Shown: positions 4,607 to 64,000, counted from the first letter of the stretch. The stretch: 64,000 nucleotides of DNA from Nannocystis pusilla (GCF_026626665.1 NZ_JAPNKE010000002.1:1485204-1549203), one strand, 5' to 3'. Numbers and translations are program-made. The notes: a model not told the origin generated them from the sequence alone.

Positions 4607-4709
4607 GGCTGGCGTCCAGATCCGGTGCCCCGGCGACCGACGGCGGGGTCGCGTGGCGCCTGGCTTCGGGGGCATGTTCTTCCGGACAGGGTGAGAAGGA
4701 CAGGTCCGC

Positions 4710-13974: not shown

Positions 13975-14135
13975 GCGGTGCGTCGCCGACTGTCACGAAC
14001 GGTTGTGGACGATGCAGTCGACGGCGGCCGCTGATGCGGTGCGTCGCGAGCCGTCACGAGCAGGTGGGTTGTGGGCGATGCAGTCGACGACGGCCGCTGA
14101 TGCGGTGCGTCGCGGGCTGTCACGAGCGAGATGTT
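13975..14135. repeat. about 66-bp direct tandem repeat, roughly 2.5 copies
   Basis: gtgcgtcgcgRgcYgtcacgagc…gatgcagtcgacgRcggccgctgatgcg is repeated between the tetR 3' end and the AKR gene start. Confidence 0.7.
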
Positions 14136-20803: not shown

Positions 20804-20814
20804 CGGGCGGGCGC

Positions 20815-20893
20815 TCGGGGCATGTCGCGGAGGACATGTCCCGGCGGCGCGGTGCGTCGGGACATGTCTCGAAGGACATGTCCTGTGCGCCCG
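20815..20893. repeat. 14-bp periodic repeat array, about 5 units
   Basis: ggggcatgtcgcggaggacatgtcccgg…cgtcgggacatgtctcgaaggacatgtcctgtg lies between convergent genes. Confidence 0.7.
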
Positions 20894-21514: not shown

Positions 21515-21555
21515 GGCGTGCGGCTAAGCAGCCGAGCCGGCGCGTGGCCGGCTCG

Positions 21556-21600
21556 AGGGAGGTGGCTCCAAGGACATGTCTCGAAGGACAGGGCCTTCGG
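21556..21600. repeat. 14-bp periodic repeat array, 2-3 units
   Basis: ccaaggacatgtctcgaaggacagggccttcgg. Confidence 0.5.
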
Positions 21601-21610
21601 AGCAGGGGTC

Positions 21611-22282: not shown

Positions 22283-22451
22283 TTGGCTCCGGAACTCAGG
22301 CCCGAAGGGCCGTACGAGGAACTGCGCGCGCGGCTTCCTTCACGTTGGAATCAGCGAAGAGCGAGGCGCCGCAGGGACGGGGAAGGTGCCCGCGATCGCG
22401 CCGGGCGTCAACCTGCGGGCGCGCCGGGACCGGGGCGGCGGCGGATTTGCC

Positions 22452-23270
22452 TCACGCGCTGGCGGGGGCCGGCAAGCGGAAGAAGGCGCGGGCGTTGGCC
22501 CCGGCCTGCACCGCCAGGGCGGCCGGATCCTCGCGGCGGACGCCGGCGAGGTGCGCGCAGGTGAAGGCGACGTTGGCCGGCTCGTTCTTGCGGCCGCGCA
22601 CGGGCACAGGGGCCAGGTACGGGGCGTCGGTCTCGAGCAGCAGGCGATCGGCGGGGCACAGGCGGGCCGCGTCGCGCAGGCCCTCGGCCTGCGGGAAGGT
22701 GGCGATGCCGGAGAAGGACAGGAGGTAGCCGCGGGCCAGCCACTGCTCGGCCTCGGCGGGGGTGCCGGTGAAGCAGTGGACGACGCCGCCGCGCGGGAGG
22801 GCCGGGGCGTCGTCGAGGATGGCGAGGGCGTCGGCGTGGGCGTCGCGGATGTGCAGGACGAGCGGCTTGTCGAGCTCGCGGGCGATCTCGCGGTGGGCGG
22901 CCAGGGCGCGTTTTTGCGCGTCGGGCGTGCTGTTGTCGTAGTGGTAGTCGAGGCCGGTCTCGCCGACGGCGACGACCTTGGCGTCGCGGGCGAGGGCGGC
23001 GATCTCGGCCAGGGCGGCCTCGTCGGCCTCCTTGGCGTCGTGCGGGTGGATGCCGACGGCGGCGAAGAGGTGGGCGTGCGGGGCGACCAGGGCGACGGCC
23101 CGCGGGGCGCTGGCGCGCGAGCAGCCGACGTGGATCATCTGCACGACGCCGGCGTCGGCGGCCCGCTGCAAGGTGGCGGCGAGGTCGTCGATCATCGGCG
23201 GGTAGTCGAGGTGGCAGTGGGTGTCGACGAGGCCAGGGAAACGGGGCGGACGCTGCGCGGGCATGATCAA
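22452..23270 (-). CDS. tatD: TatD family hydrolase (metal-dependent DNase)
   Basis: LVDTHCHLD, GETGLDYHY and HCFTG motifs. Confidence 0.8.
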   Translation of the reverse strand: MIMPAQRPPRFPGLVDTHCHLDYPPMIDDLAATLQRAADAGVVQMIHVGCSRASAPRAVALVAPHAHLFAAVGIHPHDAKEADEAALAEIAALARDAKVVAVGETGLDYHYDNSTPDAQKRALAAHREIARELDKPLVLHIRDAHADALAILDDAPALPRGGVVHCFTGTPAEAEQWLARGYLLSFSGIATFPQAEGLRDAARLCPADRLLLETDAPYLAPVPVRGRKNEPANVAFTCAHLAGVRREDPAALAVQAGANARAFFRLPAPASA

Positions 23271-23929
23271 GGGTTCATGGCGAAGATGAGGAAGTACTGG
23301 TGCGGGAGGAAGTCCTCTTCGCGCTCGAGGGCGAAGCCGGCCTGGGCGAGCTCGGCGACGATGGCGTCGCGCGAGAGCCTGTACTTCGGGTCAGGTGCGA
23401 ACTTCTCCGGCGGCTGCGCGTCGGGCCGAAAGTCGACGATCGCCAGGTGACCGCCGGGCTTGAGCGCCTGGTGGACCTTCTTGAAGTAACGCACGCGGTC
23501 GCGCAGATAGGCGTAGGTGTTGGCGACGAAGACCAGGTCGATGGCCTTCTCGGGCAGCGCCGGGTCGTCGTAGAAGGCGAGGTGCGGCTGGATGTTGGGG
23601 GTGCCCCAGCTCTCGCGCTGCGACTCGATGTGGGAGCGGAACTCGTCGTCGATGTCGACGGCGTAGACGGTGCCGGTCGGGACCTGCTGGGCCAGGCGGC
23701 GCGAGAAGTAGCCGGAGCCGGCGCCGATGTCGGCGATCACCGCGCCCTTGTCGGGGATCGGGAGGGCGCGGACGATCCGGTCGGGCATCTCCCACGACTC
23801 GCGCCCCTCGCTCTCCATGGTGGCGATCGCCGCCTTGGGGTCGTCGTAGTCCATGTCGGCGACGACCTCGCGCTTGCGACACCCGACGGCAGCGACCACG
23901 AGCACGGCGGCGAGGAGGGGGCGGTACAT
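23267..23929 (-). CDS. class I SAM-dependent methyltransferase (lipoprotein)
   Basis: Lipobox VAAVGC. SAM-binding VIADIGAGSGYFS…VYAVDID motifs. Overlaps the tatD start by 4 nt. Confidence 0.7.
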   Translation of the reverse strand: MYRPLLAAVLVVAAVGCRKREVVADMDYDDPKAAIATMESEGRESWEMPDRIVRALPIPDKGAVIADIGAGSGYFSRRLAQQVPTGTVYAVDIDDEFRSHIESQRESWGTPNIQPHLAFYDDPALPEKAIDLVFVANTYAYLRDRVRYFKKVHQALKPGGHLAIVDFRPDAQPPEKFAPDPKYRLSRDAIVAELAQAGFALEREEDFLPHQYFLIFAMNP

Positions 23930-24017
23930 GTCCGTCAGCTTACGCGCGAGCCCGGCCCCGCGGGAAGTGCCCGAGTCCAGTTCGAGGACGGCCCGAGTCG
24001 GCTACACTCCGCGGCCG

Positions 24018-24821
24018 ATGGCTGAGCCCGGAACAGCGAGCGCGGCGCGCGTCCGCCAGGAAGCGAAGGGTCGCGAGCTGCTGGCCGACTCGGGCGTGCT
24101 CTGGAGCGCGCTGCCGGTGGAGTGGCCGCGCGAGGCCGAAGGCGGGTCGGCCGCGGCGCTGCCGGGCTGGGGCTGGCGGGTGCGTCGCTCGCTGGCGGCG
24201 CTGCTGCTGCGGCCGCGCCGGAGCTTTCAACACGTCCATGAACCAGTCGACCACGGAGCGGCGCTGCGGCTGCTGCTGACGGTGAGATTGCCGCTGTGGG
24301 CGGCGCTGCTGGTGACGCTGGGCATTGCAGGCCCGACAGCCGCGGTCCACGAGGGGATCCCGCTGTTCGACGCGCACCTGGTCGAGGCGCTGTCGCTCTG
24401 GTTGCTGCTGATGGCGCCGGTCGGGGTGCCGCTCCTGTACGCGAGCCTGGGGATCGCCACCCACGTGGCCCTGGCGCTGACCGGCGGGGCGCCGCGCTCG
24501 ATCGCGGCGACCCTGCGGGCCACCGGCTACGCCCTGGCGCCCGCGCTGCTGGGGGTCGCGCTGCTCGACCTGCCGCTGTACCTGGGGCAGCTGACGCTGC
24601 CGGTCTACCTCGGCGGGCTGGGGGCGCTGACCCTGATGACGTTCGTGGTCGCCGGCAACGCGCTCACGGGGACGCACCAGATCCCGGCGATCCGCGGGTT
24701 CGTGGTCGCGCTGGTGCCGGCTGCCATGTTCGCGGCGACGCAGGCGCTCCGCGCCGTGCTCACGCTCGGCGAGCTGCCCGGCTACGCGCCGCCGCCGGGG
24801 CTGCCGTACCTGGTGCCCTGA
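24018..24821 (+). CDS. integral membrane protein, hypothetical
   Basis: Starts at MAEPGTASAAR. Several predicted TM helices (LWAALLVTLGIAG, LWLLLMAPVGVPLLY, …). Upstream ORF text is low complexity. Confidence 0.5.
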   Translation: MAEPGTASAARVRQEAKGRELLADSGVLWSALPVEWPREAEGGSAAALPGWGWRVRRSLAALLLRPRRSFQHVHEPVDHGAALRLLLTVRLPLWAALLVTLGIAGPTAAVHEGIPLFDAHLVEALSLWLLLMAPVGVPLLYASLGIATHVALALTGGAPRSIAATLRATGYALAPALLGVALLDLPLYLGQLTLPVYLGGLGALTLMTFVVAGNALTGTHQIPAIRGFVVALVPAAMFAATQALRAVLTLGELPGYAPPPGLPYLVP

Positions 24822-24825
24822 GGCT

Positions 24826-24915
24826 GGCGGGAGGGACATGTCGGGACAGACATGTCGGGAGGGGCATGGCCAGAGGGGCATGTTCTGAGGGACATGTTCT
24901 GAGGGACATGGGGTC
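24826..24915. repeat. 14-bp periodic repeat array, about 6 units
   Basis: gggagggacatgtcgggacagacatgtcgggaggggcatggccagaggggcatgttctgagggacatgttctgagggacatgggg. Confidence 0.75.
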
Positions 24916-24925
24916 GGGCGACGCG

Positions 24926-25150
24926 AGAGAGCGCGGGCGACGGACCGACTGGGGCGGGGCGAGCGAGCGCGGGCGACGGACCGACTGGGGGCGAGCGAGC
25001 GCGGGCGAAGAAACCGACGCGGGGCGGGGCGTGCGAGCGCGGGCGACGGACCGCCTGGGGCGAGCGAGCGCGGGCGACGAAACCGACATGGGGCGGGGCG
25101 TGCGAGCGCGGGCGACGAAGCGACGTGGGCGGCGCGAGGCGACGCGAACG
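24926..25150. repeat. 32-38-bp minisatellite, about 6 copies
   Basis: Unit gagcgcgggcgacggaccgactggggcggggcgagc and variants (…gaagaaaccgacgcggggcggggcgtgc…). Intergenic, flanked on both sides by 14-bp arrays. Confidence 0.75.
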
Positions 25151-25221
25151 GGTGAAGGCGAAGAACCGATGGGGCACGGCCCAATCGGGGCCGTGCGTGT
25201 TGGAGTCCCGGGCGCACGAAA

Positions 25222-25268
25222 AGAGACATGTCGCCGGGGGCATGGCCCGGGCGACATGTCTTTCAGGG
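25222..25268. repeat. 14-bp periodic repeat array, about 3 units
   Basis: agagacatgtcgccgggggcatggcccgggcgacatgtctttc. Confidence 0.6.
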
Positions 25269-25284
25269 CAACAGGTGCGGGCGC

Positions 25285-25986
25285 TCAGCCGGCCTTGGGG
25301 GGCTCGGCGGCGTCGGCGGGGACGCCGAGGACCTCCTGGATGGCGGTGTTGAGGCCGGAGAGGTCGGCCGGGGCGACGCCGGAGTACTTCACGGCGTTGC
25401 GGCCGTCGGCGAACATGACGGTGCGGCTCTTGGTGATGTTGTACCAGCCGTCGAAGGCGTCGTTCTTGCCGCCCTCGTCGGCCGGGACGACCACCGGGAT
25501 GGTGACGCCGAGCTCGGTGCGCAGGGCCTTGACCTTGGCCTCGAGCGCCGCGCGGTCGCCGGTGGGCGTGGTGGCCTTGCCGTCCTTGATGTCGGTGATG
25601 ACGGCGAACGCCTTGATCTTGTCCTCGCCGTACTTCTGGACGAGGGCGTCGAGGTTCTTGATGTCGTTGCGGAAGGCCTCGTCCTCGAGGGTGCCGACGG
25701 CCATGATCTTCGGGCTGCCGCCGAACTTGCAGACCTGGCAGTACTTCTCGCCGCTGTCGCAGTTGACGATCTCGAACGGCTTGAACTTGCCGCCGACCCC
25801 GAGGCCGCTGTCGGCGAGGACGGGCGCCTCGGCGGGCTTGGCCGGGGCGGCCTCGACGGGCTTGTCGGCGGGCGCGGGCGCGGCCGGCTTGGCGGCCTCG
25901 ACGGGGGCAGGCTTGGTGGCCGCCTCGCCGCCGCAAGCAGCAGCGAGGATCACGGCGAGGGCGAGGCTCGAACGAGTGGTGAGCAT
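25285..25986 (-). CDS. hypothetical lipoprotein with a CxxC pair and an Ala/Pro/Lys-rich linker
   Basis: Starts at MLTTRSSLALAVILAAC (lipobox). Carries NCDSGEKYCQVC. No clear thioredoxin WCxxC motif. Confidence 0.5.
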   Translation of the reverse strand: MLTTRSSLALAVILAAACGGEAATKPAPVEAAKPAAPAPADKPVEAAPAKPAEAPVLADSGLGVGGKFKPFEIVNCDSGEKYCQVCKFGGSPKIMAVGTLEDEAFRNDIKNLDALVQKYGEDKIKAFAVITDIKDGKATTPTGDRAALEAKVKALRTELGVTIPVVVPADEGGKNDAFDGWYNITKSRTVMFADGRNAVKYSGVAPADLSGLNTAIQEVLGVPADAAEPPKAG

Positions 25987-26203
25987 GGGTTCTTCCTCCG
26001 AGTGGCGGCCATTTTGGCCGGGCGGGCCGCGCGGCGCCAGCCGATCTACGGCAATTCGTCGCCTGGCGCTGGGCACGCGCGGGGTCTGGGGGCCTCGCTG
26101 ACGAGGCGCCGGCGCACGGCGCTTCGTGGTTCGACCGGGGCGAGCGAGGGCCTCGCTGTCCGTACCCGGTGAGTTCCCCTGGCGATCGCGGCGCTGCCCG
26201 GGT

Positions 26204-27299
26204 TCACGGGCACAGCGGGCTCGACGGCTCGAGGCAGGCGAGGCCGGCGACGATCTCGACGCGATGGTTGGCGCGCCGACCCTCCTCGCTGTCGTTGTCG
26301 GCGATCGGCTGGTCGGCGCCGCTGCTGCGCACCTCGAGGGTGTGATGGACGAAGCCGCGATCGATCAAGGCGGCGCGCGCCTTGTCGGCCATGTCGAGGC
26401 CGAGCTGGCGCGCCTCGGCGGGCGGCATGCCGGCGGCGGTGTGGCCCTCGAGGACGAACACGCCGCGGGTGGAGAGGCGCTGGCCGAGCTGCTTGCGCCG
26501 GGCGTCGAGCTCGAGGAAGCCCTCGGGGTCGAGCTCGCGGGTGACCGGGTCGTAGGCGATCCGGACGACGAGACGCCCGCAATCGGCGACGAAGGCCTCG
26601 GGGCAGCCGTCGTCGTCCTGCTCGCCGTTGATGGTCTCGGGCTGGTCGCGGCAGTCGCGGCGGTGGCTGCCGCGCTCCAACTTGCCGTCGCAGTTGACCC
26701 ACTCGCTGCCGGTCCAGCGCGCGGCGTCGAGGACGCCGTCGCCGTCGTTGTCGCGGTCGGGACAACCATCGTCGTCGGCGAAGCGGTCGTGATCCTCGGG
26801 ATCGTCGCGGCAGCGATCGACGGCATCGGCGACGCCGTCGGCGTCGCGGTCGGGGGCGAAGGGCGGACAGACGCGCCGCAGCTGGACCCAGCTGCCGGCC
26901 CACAGATCGTCGGCGGGACCGCCCGGGACGCCGTGGACGACCAGGCCGACGCGCGCGGCGGGCCGGACCTCGGCGCGCGCGCGCGAGCAGGTCGGCGCCG
27001 AGGGCCCGCATCTGCGCGGAGACCTGCGCCGGATCGGCGCCGGCGCGCGCGGCCGCGGCCATGTGGACGCCGAGCTCGACGCGCACCTGCGGGTCGGCGC
27101 GCACGCGGGCGATCCACTCGTCGAGCTCGGCGGCGCCGTCGCGGTCGAGCTGCAGGGGCATCGCGGTGGCGGCGTAGGGGATGGTGGCCAGGATCGCGGC
27201 GCACTCCGAGATCGGGGGCGGCTGCGGCCGCTCGGGCACTTGCGGGCCGCTGCAGGCGAGCAGCGCGGCCAGCGAGGCGATGGCGGAGGATCGTCGCAC
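26204..27299 (-). CDS. OmpA-family lipoprotein with thrombospondin type-3 (DxDxDG) repeats; apparent frameshift
   Basis: The N-terminal frame begins MRRSSAIASLAALLAC (lipobox) at 27299. The C-terminal frame ends at 26204 with TSP3 repeats (DRDADGVADAVD…DRDNDGDGVLD) and an OmpA C-domain (…NRRVEIV). The frame change sits at a (GC)5-6 tract near 26979-26990. Confidence 0.65.
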
Positions 27300-27404
27300 G
27301 CTCGGCGATCAGGATAGCGCGAGGACGACGGACGAACCCGAGTTCTCGTCGCGCTCGCGTCCGCGCGGGTGGTCGGGAGGCCGGGCGACGGATAGGGTGG
27401 ACGC

Positions 27405-28085
27405 ATGCGCCGGTGGCAGGTCGTGGGGTTCGTGGTGGTGGTGGGATGTTCGGGCGGGCCGGGGGCGAGCGAGGCGACCTCCGAGGCGACGGCCGGCACC
27501 GGCGAGACGGCGGGGACCGGGTCGAGTTCGACGACGAGCGGGGACTCCACGACGGAGGCGCCGACGACGTCGAGCGGGGTGACGTCGACGGAGGCGTCGT
27601 CGACGACGTCGGAGCCGGTGGCGTACTGCCAGGGGTTCGAGCGCGACGCGCCGGCGCCGTTCTTCGAGCTGGCGGTGATGGGCGGGGCGCCGCTGGTCGA
27701 CGGGGCGGTGCTGCCGCTCGAGTGCGGCGGGCAGGGGCTGTGGATGTTCGGCCTGTACCCGTCGCTCGGCGGCTTCGACCCGGGCGGGTACTACCCGCAC
27801 GTGTCGGTGGTGGTCGACGTCGAGGGCTACGACATCGGGCCGACCGGACACTTCTACCAGCGCGACGGCGAGTCGTATTACATCGGCTGCGAGCAGCTCG
27901 ACGGCGGGGTGTCCGGGGTGGTGCCGGTGTTCCCGCCCGACGAGCTGGCCGAGCTGTCGGAGGTCGACGGGCTGGCGGCGCAGGTGCACGTCGAGGTCGA
28001 GACGCCGGACGGCCCGCTGGCGGTCGACGCCCTGGTGACGCTGTCGGCGCCGCCCGAGCTGGTGCAGCTCGGGTGCGTGCTGTGA
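27405..28085 (+). CDS. hypothetical lipoprotein
   Basis: ATG at 27405. Lipobox VVVGC followed by a Thr/Ser-rich linker. No known domain. Confidence 0.5.
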   Translation: MRRWQVVGFVVVVGCSGGPGASEATSEATAGTGETAGTGSSSTTSGDSTTEAPTTSSGVTSTEASSTTSEPVAYCQGFERDAPAPFFELAVMGGAPLVDGAVLPLECGGQGLWMFGLYPSLGGFDPGGYYPHVSVVVDVEGYDIGPTGHFYQRDGESYYIGCEQLDGGVSGVVPVFPPDELAELSEVDGLAAQVHVEVETPDGPLAVDALVTLSAPPELVQLGCVL

Positions 28086-28093
28086 GGTGGTTC

Positions 28094-28162
28094 TCGGGAC
28101 ATGTCCTCGGGGGCATGTCCGTGAGGGCATGCGCTGACGGGCATGTCCACGAGGACATGTCG
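28094..28162. repeat. 14-bp periodic repeat array, about 5 units
   Basis: tcgggacatgtcctcgggggcatgtccgtgagggcatgcgctgacgggcatgtccacgaggacatgtcgg lies between convergent genes. Confidence 0.75.
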
Positions 28163-28164
28163 GA

Positions 28165-28779
28165 TCAGCGGTAGAGCGCGCGCTGCTGGAGGCGGGCTTC
28201 GAGGGCCGGCCAGAAGTCGCGGCGCCAGCGGTCGGTCCAGGCCCGCTGGGCGAGCGCGCGCCGGTGCTCGGGGATCACGACCAGGAGCAGCAGGACGCCG
28301 ACGAAGAAGGCGCTGGTCATGAGGCCGATGAAGGCGAGCACCCACAGGTCGCCGGTGACGACGAACATGGCGAGCAGCATGGCGGCGCCGAACACGATCT
28401 CGCCCCAGAGGTAGGAGTCGTGGTGCCACCACGGGCTGTCGGCGAAGGAGCCGGCCGCCGGGCGGATCCGCAGGCCCACGGTGGTGCCGCTGTCGCTCGC
28501 CTCGGCGGTGATGTCGACCCAGAGGCCGATGTCGCTGGCGTCGAGGTGCCAGTGCAGGCCGGCGGCCGACGAACGGTCGTGCAGCTCGAGGCTCCTGGCC
28601 AGCGATTCGAGGGCGTCCATCACCACGGGGAGCTCGGCGTCGCAGGGCCGCCACTCGCAGTCGGAGTCGCCGGGCGCGGGCGCGGCGGGACGGACGGGTT
28701 CGGCCGTAGCGAGCACGGTCGCTGCAGGCTTGACGAGGGCGCTGCCCGGGCTCGGCAGCAGGGGGACGGTCTTCCTCAT
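28165..28779 (-). CDS. hypothetical membrane protein
   Basis: 204-aa ORF with C-terminal TM helices (IVFGAAMLLAMFVVTGDLWVLAFIGLMTSAFFVGVLLLLVVI). Confidence 0.45.
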   Translation of the reverse strand: MRKTVPLLPSPGSALVKPAATVLATAEPVRPAAPAPGDSDCEWRPCDAELPVVMDALESLARSLELHDRSSAAGLHWHLDASDIGLWVDITAEASDSGTTVGLRIRPAAGSFADSPWWHHDSYLWGEIVFGAAMLLAMFVVTGDLWVLAFIGLMTSAFFVGVLLLLVVIPEHRRALAQRAWTDRWRRDFWPALEARLQQRALYR

Positions 28780-28846
28780 TGCGGACGGTCGTGGCGCTGG
28801 CTCCGAGGATAGGCGGTCCGGGCCGGCGACACGAGCGCGAGGCGGT

Positions 28847-31800
28847 TCATCGGGCCTGCTCGGTGGCCTGGACGGGGGCGAGGTCGTCGGCCGCGGCCGC
28901 GTCGGGCGGGAGCAGGGGCAGCCAGAGGCGCACGGCGGTGCCGCGACCGAGCTCGCTGTCGATGCGGATGGTGCCGCCGTGGGCGCGGACGAACTTCTGC
29001 GCCATCGACAGGCCGAGGCCGGTGCCCTTGCCGGGCGGCTTGGTGGTGTAAAACGGCTCGAACACGTGCGGCAGGTCGTGGGCGGCGATGCCGACGCCGC
29101 TGTCGCGGATGACGATCTCGGCGCCGTCGCGGCCGTCGCCGCCGGGCGCGCCGCGGGCCTCGATCTCGATCGCGCCGCCGGGGCCGGTGGCGTCGGCGGC
29201 GTTGCCGAAGATGTTGAGGAGGGCGGACTCGAGCGAGGGGCGGTGGACCACCAGCGCGGGCAGCGAGGCGCCGGTGAACCCGGCGATCAGGCGGACGCCG
29301 CGCTCGTCGGCCTCGGGGCGGACGAGCTCCACCAACCAGTGGAGCACCTGGGCGAGCTCGCAGCGCTCGGCGCCGGGCGGGCGCCGGCGGGTGTAGGCGA
29401 GGAGGGCGTCGACGAGGGCGGCGCAGCGCTGCGAGTGACGCTCGATCCGCTCGAGGGCGCGGCGCACGAACGGATCGCGGGGGCTGCGGCGCAGCAGCAT
29501 CTGCGCGCTCATGCGGATGACCGCGACCGGGTTGTTGAGCTCGTGCGAGAGGCCGGCCACGAGGGCGCCGACGGCCGCCATCTTGCTCGACTGCACGAGC
29601 TGCTCCTGGGCGTCCTGGAGGGCGCCCAGGGCCTGCTCGAGCGCCTGCTTCTGGCGCACGACCTCGAGGTGGGTGCGGTGCAGGCGGAGCGCGGCGCGGA
29701 CGCGCGAGCGCAGCTCGACGGCGGCGAACGGCTTGGGCAAGTAGTCGTCGGCGCCGACGTCGAGGCCGCGCGCGGTCTCCTCGCGGCTGGCCTTGGCGCT
29801 GAGCAGGACGACGGGGACGTGGCGCAGGTCGTCGTCGCGCTTGAGCCGGGTGACGAGCTCGTAGCCGTCCATCTCCGGCATCATGACGTCGGCGAGGATG
29901 ACGTCGGGCGGGCGAGCGCGGGCGGCCTGCAGGGCGTCGAGGCCGTTGGCGGTCAGCTCGACGGCGTAGTCGGGGCCGAGGACCGCGGCGATGTAGGCGC
30001 GCATGTCGGGGTTGTCGTCGGCGACGAGGAGGCGCGGGAGGTCGGGCGCGGGCTCGGGGCGGACGTCGTCGACGACGACGTCGAAGCGGCCGCGCGGGGC
30101 GACGGCGGGCGCGGGCGCGGCGGCGAGGTCGACGAGGCGATCGGCGTCGATCGGCAGGTCGACGACGAAGCAGGCGCCCTGGCCGAGGGCGCTGTGGAGC
30201 TCGACGGCGCCGCCGAGCTCCGCGGCGAACTCGCGCACGATCGCCAGCCCGAGGCCGGTGCCCTCGTGCTTGCGGCTGATCGAGCTGTCGAGCTGCTCGA
30301 AGCGCTGGAACACCCGCTCGTGCTCGTCGGGGGCGATGCCGGGGCCGGTGTCGCGGACGGTGAGGTGCAGCCGCCCGCGATCGCCGGCGAGCGCGACGGT
30401 GACGGCGCCGCCGGCGGGGGTGAACTTGAGGGCGTTGCCGAGGAGGTTGAGCAGGATCTTCTCGAACATGCGCCGGTCGAGCGGGACGACCCCGAGGTCG
30501 TCCGCCAGCGCGTGCCGCAGGTCGATGCCCGCGGCCTGGGCGGCCGGCTCGGCGTCGAGGACGATGTCGAGCACGAGGCCGCGGACGTCGACCGGCTCCC
30601 AGGTCGGCCGCAGCTTGCCGGCCTCGAGCTTTTGATAGTCGAGGATGTCGTCGACGAGCCGGCCGAGCCGCGAGGCGTTGCGCCACATGCGAGTCAAGGC
30701 GGACCGCGCCTGCTCGCCGCGCAGATCGTCGGCGCCGGCGAGCAGCGACTCGAGCGGGCCGAGGATCAGCGCGAGCGGGGTCCGCAGCTCGTGGCTGATG
30801 GTGGTGAGGAACTCGCTCTTGGCCCGCAGCGCGGCGTCGGCGGCCTCCTTGGCCCGCTGCAGCTCGAGCTCCATGCGCTTGCGCTCGGTGATGTCGACGT
30901 GGATGCCGAGGAGGCCGGTGACCTCGCCGCTGTCGTCGCGGATCGGGACCTTGCTGGTCAAGAGGTACGAGTCGGTGCCGTCGGACAAGCGCAGCGGCTC
31001 CTCGATGTTGAGGATCGGGACGCCGCTGCGCATGACCTTGTCGTCCATCATGCGGAAGAAATCGGCCTCCTCGCGCGAGGCGACGACTTCGTAGTCGGTC
31101 TTGCCGATCACCTCCTCGAGGCTGGTGAAGCGGGTGCTCTGGAGGAAGTGCTGGTTGCAGCCGAGGTAGCGCGAGTCGCGGTCCTTCCAGAAGATCGCCT
31201 GCGGGACGTTGGCCAGCACGTACTTGAAGACCGCCTGCTGGCTGGCGTAGCGCGCGATCGTCTGCTCGCGCTCGGTGACGTCGAGGGCGACGCCGATGAA
31301 GCCCTGCACCACGCCGTCGACGCGGATCGGGCTGTAGTGAGCCTCGTAGAGCACGCCGCGCAGGGCGCCGACCGCCGTCAACGATTCGCCGGCGAGCGCC
31401 CGGTGGGCGGCGTCGACCACCCATGGGATGTCGCCGTAGGTCTCGAAGATCGAGCGGCCGACGTCGTCGCCGGGGTGCGGGCGCAGCGGGCTGAGGCCGT
31501 GGGGCTCGTTCAAGGTGAGGACGCCGCGGGCGTCGCAGGCGAACAGCACGACCGGGGCGTGGCTGAGGAGCGCGCGGAGGTGCTGGTCGGACTTCAGGTC
31601 GGGGGCGACGAGCGGCGCGGGCTCGGGGCGGAGGACGATCCAGGCGCCCTCGGGACGCGGGACGACGCGCACGGAGAGCCGGGTGCCGCGGCCGTCGTCG
31701 GTGCATAAGCGGACCTCGTCGATGCCTCGACAGGCCTGGTCGAGCGCGGAGTGCGGCAGCAGGCTGGCGAGGTCGCGGCCGATCAGGGCGGCGCGCTCGG

Positions 31801-32047
31801 CCCCGAGCAAGCGCTCGGCGGCGGCGTTGGCGGCCTCGACGGCGCCGGCCGGCGAGACGACGAGGAGCGCGTCGTCCATCAACTCGGTGAACTCGGCCCC
31901 AGGCAGCACGCCCGCCAAGAATACGTGATGCGGGCAGGTTGTTCGAGCGGACGACGAGGGAGGAGGTCGGCCGCGCCCGGGTCCTCGCGGCCGCGACGCC
32001 GACCGGCGGGCGGGCCCGCCGCCCCCGCCCGGCGCGCACGGAACCAC
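28847..32047 (-). CDS. hybrid sensor histidine kinase/response regulator: PAS, PAS, HisKA-HATPase, REC, HisKA-HATPase
   Basis: The first H-box is SHELRTPL and the second H-box is LSHELNNP, separated by a REC domain (LLVADDNPDMR…DVILADVMMP…). Each H-box is followed by an HATPase domain containing a GTGLGL motif. The nominal start is GTG at 32047; a more likely ATG (MDDALLVV…) lies at 31870. Confidence 0.85.
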   Translation of the reverse strand: MVPCAPGGGGGPARRSASRPRGPGRGRPPPSSSARTTCPHHVFLAGVLPGAEFTELMDDALLVVSPAGAVEAANAAAERLLGAERAALIGRDLASLLPHSALDQACRGIDEVRLCTDDGRGTRLSVRVVPRPEGAWIVLRPEPAPLVAPDLKSDQHLRALLSHAPVVLFACDARGVLTLNEPHGLSPLRPHPGDDVGRSIFETYGDIPWVVDAAHRALAGESLTAVGALRGVLYEAHYSPIRVDGVVQGFIGVALDVTEREQTIARYASQQAVFKYVLANVPQAIFWKDRDSRYLGCNQHFLQSTRFTSLEEVIGKTDYEVVASREEADFFRMMDDKVMRSGVPILNIEEPLRLSDGTDSYLLTSKVPIRDDSGEVTGLLGIHVDITERKRMELELQRAKEAADAALRAKSEFLTTISHELRTPLALILGPLESLLAGADDLRGEQARSALTRMWRNASRLGRLVDDILDYQKLEAGKLRPTWEPVDVRGLVLDIVLDAEPAAQAAGIDLRHALADDLGVVPLDRRMFEKILLNLLGNALKFTPAGGAVTVALAGDRGRLHLTVRDTGPGIAPDEHERVFQRFEQLDSSISRKHEGTGLGLAIVREFAAELGGAVELHSALGQGACFVVDLPIDADRLVDLAAAPAPAVAPRGRFDVVVDDVRPEPAPDLPRLLVADDNPDMRAYIAAVLGPDYAVELTANGLDALQAARARPPDVILADVMMPEMDGYELVTRLKRDDDLRHVPVVLLSAKASREETARGLDVGADDYLPKPFAAVELRSRVRAALRLHRTHLEVVRQKQALEQALGALQDAQEQLVQSSKMAAVGALVAGLSHELNNPVAVIRMSAQMLLRRSPRDPFVRRALERIERHSQRCAALVDALLAYTRRRPPGAERCELAQVLHWLVELVRPEADERGVRLIAGFTGASLPALVVHRPSLESALLNIFGNAADATGPGGAIEIEARGAPGGDGRDGAEIVIRDSGVGIAAHDLPHVFEPFYTTKPPGKGTGLGLSMAQKFVRAHGGTIRIDSELGRGTAVRLWLPLLPPDAAAADDLAPVQATEQAR

Positions 32048-32162
32048 GCTCGGCGAGGTCGAACGAGGCCGTCGCGGCCGCTCTTGGCTGCGGTCGGCGA
32101 GCTCGATCGCGTGGGGGCGGCGAGGCCGGCGGCCGCGGGGCGGAAGACGGTTGTATGGTTTT

Positions 32163-32215
32163 TAAGACATGCTTGAATGGACATGTTGACTGGGACATGT
32201 CCTGGAGGTCATGCG
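32163..32215. repeat. 14-bp periodic repeat array, about 4 units
   Basis: aagacatgcttgaatggacatgttgactgggacatgtcctggaggtcatgcgg. Confidence 0.65.
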
Positions 32216-32490
32216 GCGAGGCGGCGGGCGCGGGGTCGCTCGATGTCGGAGCGGCGCGGGCTGCTCAGGGCGGCGTGGGCGTGAGCGCCGGGGCGAGGCG
32301 GGCTCGCGCGGGCGCGCGAGGCGGGGAGAAGTGGGTCGATGTCGGGGCCGAGGCGCCGGCGGGCCGTCCGCCGACCGCGAGGCGGCGGGGGCGGACTGGC
32401 AGGTGCGGGGTGCCTCGATAGCCTTCGCCGAGGCGCTGGCGACGTCGCGGGGCGAGGCGCGAGCGCGGGGCGGCCGGGGAGAGGACACGC

Positions 32491-32866
32491 CATGGAGATT
32501 CGTCGCTGTCGTCGCGGGTTCGCGTTCGTGGGACTGCTGCCATTGATGGTCTCGCCGGGCTGCGAGGAGGTGCAGACATTCGGCGACGACGCGGACGAAT
32601 GGGACGGGACCGCGACGAGCGAGGCGGAGCCGGCGGCCGCGCGCGGCGGGAGCTCGATGCAATCGCAGCACGGCCTGACGTGCAGCAACCGCTGGGCCGA
32701 GGATTGGGGGGCCACGAATTGCGCCGGCACGCCCGGGGTGAAGTGGCGCCTGAAGGTGCGCTGCTGGTGGCACGGCGAGCGTCTGGGGCCGTGGCGGTCC
32801 GGTCCGGGCTCGGACCGCATCACGTGCAGCCTCGGCGCGCAGCGCTCGATGGTGGTGTGGGGCTGA
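32491..32866 (+). CDS. small Cys/Trp-rich putative lipoprotein
   Basis: ATG at 32491 (MEIRRCRRGFAFVGLLPLMVSPGC…). 125 aa. Confidence 0.4.
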
Positions 32867-32936
32867 TCCGCGCGGAGGCGTCCGCGCAGGGGCGGGTGGC
32901 CTGGTTGCGCGCGACGCCGGCGGGTACCATGCGCCG

Positions 32937-34623
<1,687 letters not shown>

Positions 34624-44373: not shown

Positions 44374-45738
44374 TCATGGGTCACGCACGGCGATGGTGCG
44401 CGCGAGGTGTTCCGACGCTTCGCGTCGCTTCATGGAAGTCACCGATGGGCCGCTTGAGTGGAGCGGTCCCGCGAGGGGCTCGGCAGCCGGAGCGCGGCGC
44501 GTAGAGCCAGCGGGCGCGCGCGGCGGTCTGCGGCGATCTTGCGGCCCGGATCGCGCGCGTTCGGAGCTCAGCGCGGCGCGTCGTCGGGGCAGACGAAGCG
44601 CTCGAAGCGGCGGGCGAGCACCGAGTCGGGCAGGCGCGCGGCCAGGCGCTGGGCGGCGGCCGCGGCGTCGGCGAGGCGGCCTTGCAGGCACAGGAGCTCG
44701 ACCCCGGCGGCCTCGCGGGCGTCGAGGAGGGCGCCGCGCGGGAACTGGCGCGCGTGGGCGTCGAGGACGGGCGGCGCCCGCCGGGTCGCGGGCGTCGAGG
44801 CGGGCGCGGGCGCGGTCGAGGAGGCCGACCTCGCGTGCGAGGTCGTCGCGGGCGGGCGGGAGCGCGGCTGTCTCGCGAGACATGTCGGAAAGCGGAGGCG
44901 AGGCCGTCTCCCGCGAGATGTCGGCGGGCGGGAGCGTGGCTGTCTCTCGGGACAGGCCTCCGGCCGCGCGGGCGCTGGCTGTCCTCGCGGACAGGTCCTC
45001 GACCTGCGCGGCGGCCCGGCCCGGGGCCTGGCGGGGGGCGACCGCGACGACGGTGGTCGCGCCGGCGACGACGAGGGTGGTCATGACGCCGGCGCGCGCG
45101 GTGGTCCAGGCGGCGGCCACCGTGGCGAGCTTGCCGTGGCCGAACAGCGGGACCATCACGGCCCAGGTGCGCGAGGCGGCGTCGGCCGGGGGTGCCTCGC
45201 GGCGGCGAGTTTCGGCGACCTCGGCGGCCAGCAGCTCGGGGCTGGCGGCCAGCTCGAGCAGGCGGGCGCGCGCGAGGCGGAGCCGCGAGTAGACGGTGTT
45301 GAGCGGCAGCTCGAGCTCGGCGGCGATCTCGGGGCCGCTCATGCCGAGCAGCTCGGTCAGCTCCCACACCTCGCGGGTGCCGCGAGGCAGGCCGGCGAGC
45401 AGGCGCTCGAGCAGGCGGGCGGCGTCGTGGCGCTCCTGCGGGGCCTCGCCGACGTGGCCGGTGAGGTCGCCGAGGGCGGCGATCCGGCGGGTCCGGCGGG
45501 CGACGCCGCGGTGCCAGTGCGAGGCGACGCGGCGGGTGACGCCGTACAGCCAGGCGCGCGCCGAGACCTGGTAGTGGACCTGGTCGAAGCGGCGGTAGGC
45601 GGTGAGGAAGACGTCCTGGACCACGTCGTCGCGGGCGGCCGCGGGGACGCCGAAGTGCTTCGCGGCCGACCACACGAATTGGAACTCTCGGTCGTAGATG
45701 GCGCGAAAGCGCGCTTCGCGGTCGGAGGCGAGCAGCAT
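44374..45738 (-). CDS. ECF sigma factor with a C-terminal TM and anti-sigma-like extension (extent uncertain)
   Basis: ATG at 45738 (MLLASDREARFRAIYDREFQFVWSAAKHFGV…). Region 2 VVQDVFLTAYRRF and region 4 LTELLGMSGPEIAAELELPLNTVYSRLRLAR are present. A TM helix VMTTLVVAGATTVVAVA follows. A 14-bp repeat array is translated in-frame (…SRETATLPP…) and the tail is Arg/Pro-rich, so the true C-terminus is unclear. Confidence 0.55.
   Translation of the reverse strand: MLLASDREARFRAIYDREFQFVWSAAKHFGVPAAARDDVVQDVFLTAYRRFDQVHYQVSARAWLYGVTRRVASHWHRGVARRTRRIAALGDLTGHVGEAPQERHDAARLLERLLAGLPRGTREVWELTELLGMSGPEIAAELELPLNTVYSRLRLARARLLELAASPELLAAEVAETRRREAPPADAASRTWAVMVPLFGHGKLATVAAAWTTARAGVMTTLVVAGATTVVAVAPRQAPGRAAAQVEDLSARTASARAAGGLSRETATLPPADISRETASPPLSDMSRETAALPPARDDLAREVGLLDRARARLDARDPAGAARPRRPRAPVPARRPPRRPRGRRGRAPVPARPPRRRRGRRPAPGRAPARLGARPPLRALRLPRRRAALSSERARSGPQDRRRPPRAPAGSTRRAPAAEPLAGPLHSSGPSVTSMKRREASEHLARTIAVRDP
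44865..45010. repeat. 14-bp periodic repeat array, about 10 degenerate units, inside the sigma/anti-sigma ORF
   Basis: ggctgtctcgcgagacatgtcggaaagcggaggcgaggccgtctcccgcgagatgtcggcgggcgggagcgtggctgtctctcgggacaggcctcc…gtcctcgcggacaggtcctcg. Confidence 0.55.
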
Positions 45739-45776
45739 GGGGCCGTGGGGGCTGTCCCCGACCGAGACGGTTTCCG

Positions 45777-46851
45777 TCACCGCGGGTCTCCGAGGCGCAA
45801 TTCGAGGCCGAGGAGCAGGCGCAGGCTCGCAGGCGCGCTGGTGAACAGGTTGACCGGCTCCGGGGTGTCCGCGAGGTCGAAGCTCGGGGCGGCCAGGCGG
45901 ACGAGGCCCTGGGCGGCCAGGCTGAGGCCGAGGAGCCGGTGAAACCGCCAGGTGGCGCCGGCCGAGACGAGCACCGCCGCCCACAGCCCGGTGGCCGCCC
46001 GCGCGCCCGGACCGCGACCCTGGCCGCGCAGGCCGCCGAGCTCGGCGCCGCCGCACAGCGGGAACTCGAAGCGGCCGCGGGCCAGGCGAGCGCAGCCGCG
46101 AGCGCCGCCGCCGAGCAGGTAGACGCGGACCTGGTTGGGCAGGCGCGCCTCGGTCTGCGGGACGAGGTGGACGCCGTGGAACTCGAGGCGAGCGCGGCGC
46201 CAGAGGACGCCGGCGACGAGCTCGAGCGCGGCGGTCGGCGCGGGGACGGTGCCGACCTCGAAGCCGGCCGAGACGCAGCAGCGCGCCAGGGCCTCGCTTG
46301 CGCGGGGGCGGGGCCGGGGCGAGCGGCTCGTCGGCGGTGAGAACGGCGGGCTCGGGCGCGGGCGCGGGCGACTGGACCGGGGCGACGGGGTCGTCGACGA
46401 CGGACTCGGGGGCGAGCGCGAGGGGCGGGGCGGGTTCGGGGCCGGGGCTCGGCTCGGTCGGCGGCTCCGGGTCGGTCGGCAGGGGCTCGAGCTCCGGCTC
46501 GACCTGATCGGTCGACCGCTCGGCGGCGGTGGGATCGAGCGCGAGGGCGGTCAGGAGCGCGGCAGCGTCGACCAGGGCGGCGCAGCGGCGAGCGCTGAGG
46601 CGCCGGGTCTGGGCGTGGCCGCCGACGGCGAGGCGCAGGTCGAGGTGGTACTGCGCAGCGCCGTCCCGCTCGACCCGCCCGACCAGAGAGAGCTCGTCGG
46701 CTGCGGGCTCACGGCCGAGGCGGCCGGCGATCGCCACGGCCAGCGCGCGGCGATCGGGGCAGCCCGCCGGCGCCTGCCACTCGATCGCGCCGGCAGACGG
46801 GGGCTGGGGCACCTGGAACGCGAGCACTGCGGCGAGGAGCGCGGACGGCAT
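45777..46851 (-). CDS. hypothetical secreted or outer-membrane protein (probable frameshift)
   Basis: The N-terminal frame (from 46851) has a signal-like start MPSALLAAVLAF… and a Pro/Glu-rich linker. The C-terminal frame ending at 45777 shows alternating hydrophobic beta-strand-like segments (…FEFPLCGG…TWRFHRLLGLSLAA…LGLELRLG). Confidence 0.3.
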
Positions 46852-59674: not shown

Positions 59675-59780
59675 GGCTGTCTCTCCGGACATGTCGCAAA
59701 CGCCAGGCGGACTCAGCCGTGGCCGCGGGGGGCGCGCGGGTCGGGGATGTCCCTGAGAACATGCCCCGAGAGCCAGGCTC
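59675..59780. repeat. 14-bp periodic repeat array, 6-7 units
   Basis: ggctgtctctccggacatgtcgcaaacgccaggcggactcagccgtggcc…gggtcggggatgtccctgagaacatgccccgagagcc. Confidence 0.65.
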
Positions 59781-61757
59781 AGCCGCCCTGCGCCACGGCG
59801 TGGTCGAGCTCGGCGAGCTCGTGGGCGAAGCCGCCCGAGAGGATCGGGAAGCGGCACCACGTCTTCGGGTCGAGGTTCTCGTCGTCGAGGTGGAAGCTCG
59901 GGGCGTAGCGCTCGCGCTTCCACTGGTTCTGGCTCCACAGGCGGAAGAACCGCTTGATCCACAGCAGCAGCTGGTCGCGGCCGTGCTCGGGGAAGCGGCT
60001 GGCGAGGACCCGGTAGACCTCTTTGGGGGCGAGCTTGTCGCGGATGGCGGCGCGCTCGATGACGTCGAGGATCGGGTACGGCATCAGGTCGTCCTCGTCG
60101 GTCTGTTTGGCGCCGGCGGGCCGCAGCTCGGCGGTCGGGGCCTGGACGTTGACGGCGCGCACGGCCGGCGTGGGGCCGACGCCGGCGGGGCCCTCGAGCT
60201 CGACCCACCGCAGCCACTGGCGCAGGAAGGCCTTGTCGATGCCGGCGATCGGCGACAGACCGCCGCAGGTGTCGCCGTCCATGGTGGCGTAGCCGACGGC
60301 GGCCTCGCTGCGGTTGCTGGTGGCCAGCAGGAGGGCGCCGCGCAGGTTGGCCAGCAGCCACACGCCGGGGGCGCGGGCGCGGGCCTGGATGTTCTGCAGG
60401 GCGATGTCGTCGCTCTTCCAGCCGAGCTCGCGGCCGATCGCGCCCTCGACGGTGCGCACGTAGGCGCGAACGAGCGGGTCGACGTCGAACTCGAGGAACT
60501 CGGCGCCGACGGCCTCGGCGACCGCGCGGGCGGCGTTGCGGGTGGTGTCGGAGCTGTTGGCGGTGGACTGGTAGACGCAGGTGAGCAGCGCCCGCACGAT
60601 CGCCCGCGGGGTGGTGCACGAGTCCTCGGGCAGGCCGAGGCGGGCGCAGGTGGCCGCGACGCCGAGCTCCTGCGTGGCCAGCGTGACCATGAGGTGGACG
60701 AGGTAGGCGACCGCGGCCGAGTCGGCGCCGCCGCTGAGCGAGACGACGAAGCCGCGCGACCGGCTCTTGCGCAGGTAGTCGAACAGGCCGAGCGCGACGG
60801 CGCGCGAGAACTCCTCGCGCTTGTCGTCGGGCCACGCGGGGGCCGGCAGCGGCTCTTGCGGCGGCAGATCGGCGACGGGCAGCTGCGTGTCGAAGCGGGT
60901 GATCCGGCGCAGGTTGTCGTCGACGGCCGGGCCGGCGGTCCTGCGGGCGTGGATCATGCGCGCGAGGTCGACGTCGATCACGGCGCTGGTCAGGTACACG
61001 TCGTCGTAGCCGAGCCGCGGGCCCTCGGCGATCAGGTGGCCGGAGGCGGCGATCATGCACTCGCCGTCGTAGATGACGCGGCCAGCCTCGTTGCCGATGA
61101 AGCTGGAGTAGACGTAGGCGGCGCCGAAGCTGCGCGAGGCGCCGATGACGATCTGCTTGCGCACCTCGTGCTTGCCGAACGCGAAGTGGCTGGCGCTGGG
61201 GTTGCAGATCACGTCGACGCCCTGGCTGGCGAGCTCGACGCCGGGGCGGTTCGGGACCCACGCGTCCTCGCAGATCTCGAAGCCGATCCGCAGGCCGCCG
61301 ACCTCGAAGATCTGGTCGCCCAGCGGGTAGCTGTGGCCGTCGTGCTCCCACTGCACGAACTTGCCGGCCGGCCAGCCCTTGAACCACCGCGGCTCGTAGT
61401 GGATGCCGTCGCCGGCGAGGAAGCGCTTGCCGACCAGGCCGACGATGTGGCCGTCGGCGACCAGGCACACCGCGTTGTAGTTGGCCGCGCGGTGCATGAT
61501 CGGCAGGCCGAGCGCGACCACCATGCCCTTCGTCTCGGGCAGAAGCTCTGCAAGATCCGCCACGACTCGAGGATCGTGCCGCGGCTGAAGAACGCGTCCT
61601 CGCAGCCGTAGCCGGGGATGCACAGCTCGGGCAGGCACAGGACGGCGACGCCCTGCTCGCGGGCCATGCGGATCGCCTCGACGATCCGGGCCTGGTTGCC
61701 GTCCCAGTCGAGCGGCGTCTGGTTGAGGGCGGCGGCGGCGACGCGGACGAGGTGCAT
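59779..61757 (-). CDS. nadE: glutamine-dependent NAD+ synthetase (CN-hydrolase plus NAD-synthase domains); apparent frameshift near 61550
   Basis: The N-terminal frame from 61757 is MHLVRVAAAALNQTPLDWDGNQ…CLPELCIPGYGCEDAFF. The main frame (59779..) continues with …FEICEDAW… in the nitrilase domain and …SLSGGADSAAVA… in the NAD synthetase domain. Confidence 0.8.
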
Positions 61758-61779
61758 TCAATGTCTCCTGGGACAGGGT

Positions 61780-62719
<940 letters not shown>

Positions 62720-62723
<4 letters not shown>

Positions 62724-64000
62724 GCGGCGGGGGAAGAGTACCCCTCGGCGAGCGCGTTGGCGACCTCGGTATAGGCGTAATCGCTGACGCGTTCGTCGAT
62801 GCGCATGCGCAGCAGCGCCTTGCTGCGGCAGGTGGCCGCGAAGAAGAACGCGCGATCGTCGGCGCACGCGCGCGCGAGCGCCGGATCGATCGCCCAGCGA
62901 TCCCACTCACGCTGGCAGATCCGCCGCACCGCGGGCCACAGGACGGCGGGATCGGGGCCGCCGGCGTCGTCGACCCAACCGATCACAGCCGCGAGGTGGG
63001 CGTGTACGAGGGTGTGCAGCAGCTTGCCCTGCGCCTCGGCGAGGTCGGAGGTCAGGGTGAAGGAGTCGGGCGCGAGCGCGGGGGCGTGGCCGGCCGCGGC
63101 CAGCCGCCCGCGGTGGAGCCGCACGCCGCCGAGGTCGCGGACGACGAAGCCGCAGGGGCGCCCGGCGTGGACGAGGAGGGTGTTTTGCAGGTGCGCCTCG
63201 AGGGCGACGCCGTGGGCGGTGAGCAGGCGCAGGGCCGCGGGGACGAGGAGGTCGAGGTAGTCGTGGAAGAAGGCCGCGAGGCGCGCGCGCAGATCGCCGG
63301 GGTAGTCGGCGGCGAGCTCGCGCAGCAAGAGATCGCCGCCGGGCCGATGCTCGCCGAGCGCGGCGCAGACGACGAGCTGCGGGGTGCGCGATCGTACATG
63401 CTTAAAGAAATGTCGTGCGGGACAGGTCCTCGGGGGCATGTTCCTGGGGGAATGTCGCGAAGGACAGGTCGGAAGGGGCAGGTGCGCGGGGGGCGAGTTC
63501 GGCGTCGCGCGGGACGGGTCGGTGGTTGCGCCGAGGATGGCGGGCAGGGCGGCGTGGAGCTCCTGGGCGAGGGTGGCGGGGTCGGGGCGGAGGACGGCGC
63601 CGAGCTGGCCGGCGGCGGCGCCGTGGCGCGGGTGCAGGCCGGCGGCGGCGAGGTCGGGCTGGATCTGCAGGCCGCGGCGGGTCTGCGGGTCGGCGGCCTG
63701 GATCGCGGCCAGGAGGGCGGCGATCGCCGGGCCGTTGTGCACCGAGGCGGGCGAGACCTGGCGCCGCGCGCTGGTGGTGTGGATGTCGACGGCGAGCTTG
63801 AGGTGCAGCGCGGGCGCGGCGAGGGCGACGGTGCGCAGGCTGAGCAGGGCGCGGGCGGGGAGCGGGGGCAGGCCGGCGGGGCGGACCTCGCGGCCCCACA
63901 GCGGGCCGAGCAGGCGCGGGAGGCGGCGCAGCTGGAGGGCGTGGACGGGCAGCCGGACCAGGCCGGGCGACGGGGCGGGGAAGAGGGCGCGCGCGAGGTC
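62720..64000 (-). CDS. IucA/IucC-family (NIS) siderophore synthetase, 3' portion; gene continues beyond the window end
   Basis: The frame is open to the window edge. It contains …[10 protein letters not shown]… (compare the LPVHPWQ motif) near 63930 and …[14 protein letters not shown]…RDLGGVRLH… (the H-x-QN motif) near 63200. Its stop overlaps the prs start (ATGA). A 14-bp repeat array at 63396-63482 is translated in-frame. Confidence 0.6.
63396..63482. repeat. 14-bp periodic repeat array, about 6 units, in-frame inside the NIS synthetase ORF
   Basis: atgtcgtgcgggacaggtcctcgggggcatgttcctgggggaatgtcgcgaaggacaggtcggaaggggcagg. Confidence 0.65.

Follow-up and report, generated by a model that had tools for sequence, protein, structure and literature searches.

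Tandem 14-nt repeats of Nannocystis carried in frame within a synthetase gene and a sigma factor gene of Nannocystis pusilla

The stretch of DNA analyzed here (hereafter the window) comprises 64,000 nt of Nannocystis pusilla (NZ_JAPNKE010000002.1:1485204-1549203), with a GC content of 72.0%. Its last part (62720..64000, minus strand) holds the C-terminal 426 codons and the stop codon of a gene for an IucA/IucC-family (NIS) synthetase of 635/636 aa, as determined by protein match, Pfam domains, and an AF2 model. The N-terminus of the protein lies beyond the end of the window. The fragment is 100% identical to OV079_06895 of N. pusilla (P0001, 635 aa, with PF04183 and PF06276), and the respective domains were recovered from the fragment itself, that is, IucA_IucC (PF04183) at residues 15-147 (79.2 bits against a cut-off of 25) and FhuF-like (PF06276) at residues 243-404 (94.5 bits against 25.2).

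The AF2 model of the synthetase, based on an alignment of 116 sequences, reached a pLDDT of 92.1 and a pTM of 0.91, whereas an alignment of 17 sequences gave a pLDDT of 51. In Foldseek comparisons the model matched AsbB (3to3) with an E value of 3e-24 and TM scores of 0.69-0.76, and AcsD, IucA, IucC, DesD, and AlcC were also matched over the full length of the fold. The motifs GHPWHP, EAHLQN, and RDLGG are conserved in the alignment of this predicted NIS synthetase. The order of the genes (59779-64000 in the window; L084-L087 among the fetched loci) is also conserved. The synthetase is followed by a Prs-like phosphoribosyltransferase gene, the start of which is overlapped by the synthetase stop codon, and by a glutamine-dependent NAD synthetase-like (NadE-like) gene. 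Judged from gene order, this partnership is unusual for a NIS synthetase, and its product may not be a classical siderophore.

Within the synthetase gene, an array of seven units with a period of 14 nt is located at 63395..63484 (minus strand), as defined by core positions, by the spacing in orthologues, and by GC3. Core-like 8-mers start at 63395, 63407, 63421, 63435, 63449, 63463, and 63477. The interval is 14 nt throughout, except for the first one, which is 12 nt. On the plus strand the units read, in order, TACATGCT, GAAATGTC, GACAGGTC, GGCATGTT, GGAATGTC, GACAGGTC, and GGCAGGTG, and positions 63407-63484 contain five consecutive overlapping matches to the two-unit pattern of the family described below. 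No stop interrupts the minus-strand frame 62720..64000 across the array. GC3 drops to 0.61-0.65 in the array, against 0.93 in the whole gene and 1.0 in the flanks. A preliminary description of the window had placed this array within a single open coding frame, and this is confirmed by the Pfam domains on both sides, by the full-length fold, and by the conserved flanks of the orthologues.

The residues encoded by the array are approximately 172-202 of the 426-residue fragment, between the IucA_IucC and FhuF domains. As a period of 14 nt is not divisible by 3, the reading frame rotates from unit to unit through three phases, in which GAC ATG TC. gives D-M-S,.ACA TGT C gives T-C, and ..CAT GTC gives H-V. 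The consensus of the unit (nnnGACATGTCCCn) is identical in all three codon phases, and the peptide has a period of 14 residues because three units of 14 nt equal 42 nt or 14 codons. In the AF2 model, the sole internal segment with a pLDDT below 50 is found at residues 376-403, between the helix 350-366 and the strand 417-420, and this low-confidence segment is the array insertion, modeled as a disordered loop. Upstream of the array in the coding sense, orthologue alignments show a variable low-complexity stretch (63485..63560, minus strand). This stretch and the array together contain every indel between close relatives. In comparison with Nannocystis sp. RBIL2, for instance, all indels in 1.27 kb fall within 63402-63545.

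The peptide that had been read from this array needs correction. A Logan contig of run ERR2215891 (L087) differs from the window by one mismatch in 4276 aligned nt and thus derives from the same strain. It carries one or two extra bases at six sites (63493, 63403, 62182, 61883, 61819, and 61548), all of them homopolymer or dinucleotide runs from which bases are absent in the window. In detail, the contig has C7 where the window has C6 at 63493 (1 nt), and T4A3 where the window has T3A2 at 63403 (2 nt). The six gaps are probably deletion errors of the window's assembly, as judged from the sequence comparison. The array therefore lies between two probable assembly deletions (63403..63493) and is displayed in the wrong frame, as the contig and the corrected translation indicate. 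Once the bases are restored, as in the product of the contig (P0242, 636 aa), the array is read in the ancestral frame, that of every orthologue, and the frame quoted in the preliminary description ends in TAA. The peptide of about 29 residues given there is consequently in the wrong frame for about 28 residues, since the two sites of missing bases bracket the array.

A natural compensated frameshift, indicative of an unconstrained loop, was considered and rejected, as the contig presents the three missing bases as homopolymer deletions, with four more elsewhere in 4.3 kb. Translational bypass or an intervening sequence removed at the RNA level was also set aside; the array of every orthologue is a multiple of 3 and the host frame is free of stops.

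The deletion at 62182 splits the Prs-like gene into two frames. Similar frame breaks were noted at 44768 and possibly at 46273, 49183, and 49933, and other parts of the window are likely to contain such spurious frameshifts as well. For Na p29T, the type strain of N. pusilla, Nanopore R9.4.1 reads were assembled with Flye (PMC10435759). The window would be this Nanopore assembly, judging from a locus-tag series shared with RBIL2.

All 16 of the aligned orthologues, down to about 64% identity, have E-D-M/L-S-x-x-T-x-P-x-x-H-A/V once or twice at the site of the array. The exact 14-nt spacing of the cores, with 4 to 6 units, was found in Nannocystis sp. RBIL2, N. exedens, N. punicea, N. bainbridge, and N. 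radixulma, and three more distant metagenomic orthologues have 3 units. Between species the synthetase thus has 3, 4, 6, or 7 units, the length of the loop is a multiple of 3 at every locus tested, and the protein ranges from 584 to 644 aa. Rare codons ending in A or T (ACA, CAT, CTT, TTA, and GGA) are retained in orthologues whose gene GC3 is 0.95. This retention and the drop of GC3 are an indication that the sequence of the array is dictated at the DNA level.

In Enhygromyxa, Plesiocystis, and other Nannocystaceae, the corresponding loop is free of repeats and only 11-22 residues long, against 40-70 residues in Nannocystis. One MAG has a two-unit RDISGT at the same site. As these outgroups have a short repeat-free loop and the Nannocystis orthologues all have the array, the comparison identifies the synthetase array as a DNA repeat inserted into a short variable loop, at a time preceding the diversification of the Nannocystis clade, with the number of units altered since then. 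The proposal that such elements invade ORFs is therefore supported in part. The array is an insertion relative to the outgroups and in that sense lineage-specific, but it is common to the whole Nannocystis clade and is neither recent nor strain-specific. The orthologues carry the array at the same position.

When four species were compared, 39 of the 60 core positions were invariant, as were 5 of the 24 spacer positions and 140 of the 200 flanking third codon positions. Only the spacers stand out, as they change fast; the cores are no better conserved than the flanking third positions.

Beyond the end of the window, the 5′ portion of the synthetase gene contains a second, two-unit site (CAGGACATGTCCCTTCGCACATGTTCC), which encodes DMSLRTCS (residues 63-70). 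It was located at about 3168-3195 in L001-L005 and also in L084-L086, and it is common to all Nannocystis orthologues. This site keeps rare codons and is placed in a confidently modeled beta-hairpin rather than in a loop.

The second gene with an in-frame array is located at 44568..45780 (minus strand). Based on Pfam, orthologue alignment, and frame analysis, it encodes an ECF sigma factor joined to a transmembrane segment, a repeat linker, and a C-terminal helical domain, with its start at a GTG at 45780 or an ATG at 45738. The sigma-70 region 2 and region 4 domains score above the gathering threshold (Sigma70_r2, PF04542, 32 bits; Sigma70_r4_2, PF08281, 45 bits; Sigma70_ECF, PF07638, 25 bits). 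Behind these domains come a hydrophobic segment, then the repeats, and finally a C-terminal domain that is conserved. The linker contains four copies of a 36-39-nt repeat (44865..45010, minus strand), detected through Tandem Repeats Finder (TRF) periods of 36 and 39, through cores at 44997, 44958, 44922, and 44886, and through translation. Each repeat consists of GACATGTC-N6-GACAGCC, that is, two units of the 14-nt family, and 8-11 further nt, and encodes D-M-S-R-E-T-A-x-x-P-x-x, 12 residues per 36 nt. The translation of the array reads EDLSARTA / GLSRETA / DISRETA / DMSRETA, and hence the SRETA-type repeats are in frame, as originally described.

On the contrary, the ORF 44374..45738, in which these repeats had been placed, is not one frame. 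At 44768, all three of the relatives compared have 2 more nt (CAGCTC against CGTC in the window), and the orthologous frame continues past this point as QLLDAHARQFPRG up to a stop at 44568-44570. Two sequences (P0124 and P0246) depart from all orthologues after RDPAGAA, whereas P0247, P0122, P0123, and P0121 continue with QLLDAHARQFPRG. Given this divergence, positions 44374..44767 (minus strand) represent an out-of-frame tail and not real protein sequence; the ORF corresponds to the 454-aa call of NCBI, and both NCBI calls (454 and 468 aa) run through the tail. Given the error pattern of the six gap sites above, the frameshift is probably a fault of the assembly as well. The array lies upstream of it and is in frame in all relatives.

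The copy number of the sigma repeat varies widely. The window has 4 copies, Nannocystis sp. RBIL2 about 7, N. exedens 1-2 degenerate ones, and another N. pusilla genome (GCA_049337375.1) about 9-10 in a protein of 541 aa, while at most one copy is found in relatives at about 54% identity. Accordingly, the protein has about 1-10 repeats and a length of 404 to 541 aa, and this variation is also found among N. pusilla-like strains. The suggestion of the preliminary description that the arrays alter protein length is borne out for both genes (584-644 aa in the synthetase and 404-541 aa in the sigma protein among relatives). Variation between strains is seen in the sigma protein (4 against about 9-10 copies in N. 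pusilla-like genomes), and for the synthetase it was found between species (3-7 units). The window does not have an additional linker segment of about 60 residues (SPFSFAHLRAQVAGVWTRATAPLSPGPAA...RPAYDQLLSRETS), possibly a second insertion, which some strains carry (P0121, P0123, and P0126; L082, about 2280-2600; L089, about 2000-2250).

Both in-gene arrays have to be seen against a family of repeats which is spread over the window. Numerous short arrays with a 14-nt period were detected by Tandem Repeats Finder, GGACATGTCC being an example of their cores. In each unit of the family, about 4 variable bases come after a core G(A/G)CATGTCC(C); the palindromic part is G(A/G)CATGTC and the period is exactly 14 nt. 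The window contains 40 matches to the two-unit pattern GRCAKGTY-N6-GRCAKGTY, compared with an expectation of 0.04 derived from shuffles. Pairs of core-like 8-mers (at most one mismatch to GACATGTC, GACAGGTC, or GACCTGTC) at exactly 14 nt occur 15 times, and at 8-13, 15-18, and 20-21 nt there are none. Chains of at least 3 units number 11 in the window and 0 in 20 shuffles. The 8-nt core has no stop in any frame, as had been stated, but this does not extend to whole arrays, the spacers of which carry stops.

Arrays of this kind are present in every Nannocystis locus fetched and absent from the fetched loci of Enhygromyxa, Plesiocystis, and most other Nannocystaceae. In the literature on Nannocystis and myxobacterial repeats and on the core motif, no relevant description of 14-nt arrays was found. 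The family thus appears to be genus-wide in Nannocystis and undescribed so far. As the in-gene arrays have the same core, the exact 14-nt spacing, and a consensus which is alike in three codon phases, they belong to this intergenic family.

Outside the two host genes, 13 out of 17 arrays or two-unit sites are found within 31 nt of a stop codon, the stop codons counted being those of high-GC3 frames. The array at 32166-32201 is an exception to this 3′-end preference, as it is situated in a divergent 5′ region and not after a stop codon. Among the window arrays with at least 3 units, 1 of the 11 is located inside a gene, and carriage within an ORF is therefore the exception for the 14-nt arrays of the window. 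Intergenic arrays with palindromic CATG cores form long hairpins, with fold z-scores of -5.5 to -7.4. The GC-rich hairpin followed by a T tract that defines an intrinsic terminator was not seen in the arrays; in 20000-33000, a scan for canonical promoters and terminators gave 2 terminator sites against 2.3 expected and flagged no array. An Rfam scan of the whole window at gathering thresholds returned no family. A synthetic array peptide of 74 aa, short and biased as a query for a database of 5.8 billion proteins, retrieved 34 candidates that share words with it and none with E <= 10.

The non-palindromic variants of the core, GACAGGTC and GGCATGTT, are confined to the plus strand (GACAGGTC has 8 occurrences in the window against 0 for GACCTGTC), for instance at 4699, 20296, 41915, 43662, 44990, 50040, 63421, and 63463, irrespective of the orientation of the neighboring genes. 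This bias suggests chromosome-arm polarity or a strand-specific mutation bias. Other tandem repeats of the window include one of 36/69 nt between two 14-nt arrays (24916-25146, about 6.6 or 3 copies), one of 105 nt (11544-11756, 2 copies), one of 66 nt (13975-14127, 2.4 copies), and one of 79 nt (15017-15166, 1.9 copies).

These results are probably best explained by a genus-wide family of 14-nt repeats which normally resides 3′ of stop codons and is carried in frame at two tolerant sites, where length changes with copy number. The arrays would usually reside in the short gaps that follow stop codons on the 3′ side, and neighboring palindromic units could pair into long hairpins there. The sites in the host genes would be segments that tolerate any sequence, namely the disordered loop of the synthetase and the linker of the sigma protein between the membrane helix and the C-terminal domain. 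There, the units would be read as D-M/L-S, T-C/F-P, and H-V/A, together forming a super-unit of 42 nt (14 residues). Within coding sequence, length changes other than multiples of three bases would be lost, and the outcome could be the 3 and then 6-7 units of the synthetase and the derivative 36-nt repeat of the sigma gene. Replication slippage or unequal recombination would change the copy number and thereby the length of the protein, between species as well as between strains. The array segments would be translated passively and would be functionally neutral. As candidate routes of arrival, transposition, recombination, and growth from a chance seed may be considered.

Some of the evidence also fits a role at the nucleotide level, in which the arrays would be cis-elements (protein-binding sites, or RNA hairpins for transcript ends or stability) under nucleotide selection, with translation as a side effect. 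The core is conserved across three codon phases, the rare codons ending in A or T are retained within cores in species with a GC3 of 0.95, no orthologue down to about 64% identity lacks the array, the two-unit site towards the 5′ end of the synthetase gene is conserved together with its rare codons, and the strand bias of the non-palindromic variants is strict (GACAGGTC, 8 against 0). A constraint on nucleotides, as opposed to pure neutrality, is indeed hinted at, since an A/T-rich core persists throughout the clade against a GC3 of 0.95-1.0 and a second conserved site exists. Nevertheless, the invariance of the core (65%) does not exceed that of the flanking synonymous sites (70%), the RNA fold of the sense strand in the gene is not conserved (z = -1.8, -0.4, +0.1, -1.8, -4.8, -3.3, and -3.3), the arrays have neither T-tract terminators nor an Rfam family, and no binding protein is known. 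A cis-element role is thus considered rather unlikely as the explanation; it is compatible with the carriage of a repeat family at tolerant sites and differs from it only in the reason for which the arrays persist. A bolder form, to which a low probability is assigned, takes the 14-nt core as a working signal (a platform for a chromosome-associated or regulatory protein, or a mark for RNA processing) selected as nucleotides even in coding sequence. If this were true, the protein would have no choice but to read D-M-S / T-C-P / H-V as the frame rotates, the gene of the NIS synthetase would have carried two sites since before the genus diversified, and the plus-strand bias of the asymmetric variants would reflect the polarity of the chromosome arm.

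Selection could instead act at the peptide level, the candidates being a Cys/His-containing motif of the synthetase or, for the sigma linker, a Ser/Thr/Pro-rich spacer or modification motif; the likeness to intergenic DNA repeats would then be secondary. Distant orthologues keep the frame as well as the motifs EDMS / T-x-P / GHA, and the sigma period of 36 nt is a multiple of 3 that yields a clean unit of 12 residues. An exact DNA period of 14 nt is, however, meaningless for a protein, one unit consensus is read in three different frames, and most orthologues have Phe, Tyr, or Leu in place of Cys. In addition, the segment is predicted to be disordered and is absent from the outgroup enzymes, while the copy number in the sigma protein is free (1 to about 10), and selection for the peptides is accordingly regarded as highly improbable. 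An artefact, that is, an intergenic array or the mark of a broken gene whose open frame is due to high GC or misassembly, could draw on the six indel errors in 4.3 kb of the window assembly, on the frameshift of the sigma ORF at 44768, and on the estimate that a stretch of 87 nt at 58% GC is open by chance in about 40% of frames. It is largely refuted and has almost no probability left. Both flanks of the synthetase array belong to one continuous NIS-synthetase fold, and one open frame passes through the array in the same-strain short-read contig and in 16 orthologues, with no stop or frameshift that would make it intergenic between two genes; the sigma array precedes the frameshift, and all relatives read it in frame.

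Among the known systems, the Rickettsia palindromic elements (RPEs) are a genus-specific palindromic family found both in intergenic regions and in frame within unrelated metabolic genes, where the encoded peptide was judged to be compatible with the fold (PMC10969869). Similarly, the 14-nt family of the window occurs both between genes and inside ORFs, the frame of the host is kept at all loci, and the synthetase site is predicted to be a fold-compatible disordered loop. On the other hand, an RPE is a single element of about 150 bp, with several families and one conserved peptide each, whereas tandem units of 14 nt are found here, 3-7 per site, in three rotating frames and with a variable copy number. 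The arrays thus do not have the build of one element of about 100-150 bp that has long-range palindromic ends and encodes one conserved peptide. Moreover, nearly half of the RPEs are located in ORFs, against 1 of the 11 arrays of the window. By analogy, the RPEs are the closest precedent, and the Nannocystis arrays would work alike without being members.

In enterobacteria and pseudomonads, the REP/BIME sequences are short palindromic extragenic repeats clustered downstream of genes, which can form hairpins in the transcript. The arrays resemble them in their proximity to the 3′ ends of genes and in their hairpin potential, with the exception of the two in-gene arrays. However, REP units are 20-40 nt long, alternate in orientation within BIMEs, are linked to RAYT transposases, and are extragenic by definition, while the units here are of 14 nt and placed head to tail, so that both size and orientation differ. 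The sigma protein resembles the coding VNTRs of mycobacteria, in that its 36-nt repeat would change the length of a linker by slippage without a frameshift; it has a repeat within the coding sequence, copies that vary between strains, and a frame that is kept. MIRUs are found at gene junctions and can be read in frame. In contrast to VNTRs and MIRUs, the repeat here comes from a palindromic intergenic family of 14 nt, and as the unit of the synthetase is not a multiple of 3, its frame is kept only by steps of 42 nt. Finally, in-frame MITEs (ERIC, BOX, Correia, and those of Anabaena) are non-autonomous, free of stops in some frames, and can become joined with the ORFs of their hosts (PMC10969869). 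Their insertions are single units with terminal inverted repeats and target-site duplications, whereas no such ends were identified here.

Conclusively, the in-gene arrays are real but unsurprising, as they represent a known phenomenon in a new form, and the caveat on assembly quality is important. The public assembly used here contains frame-breaking indels, which can give repeat regions, and also other genes, a stranger appearance than they really have. For annotators, EDMS..T.P..H and SRETA provide the signature of a repeat-derived peptide in Nannocystis. With respect to evolution, a short intergenic repeat family can thus persist for long inside essential protein folds and supply raw length variation for loops and linkers. 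The idea developed for RPEs would thereby be extended to a free-living bacterium with a large genome and high GC, and to a tandem element with a period that is not a multiple of three. The 14-nt array family of Nannocystis may itself be a more interesting object than its in-gene copies.
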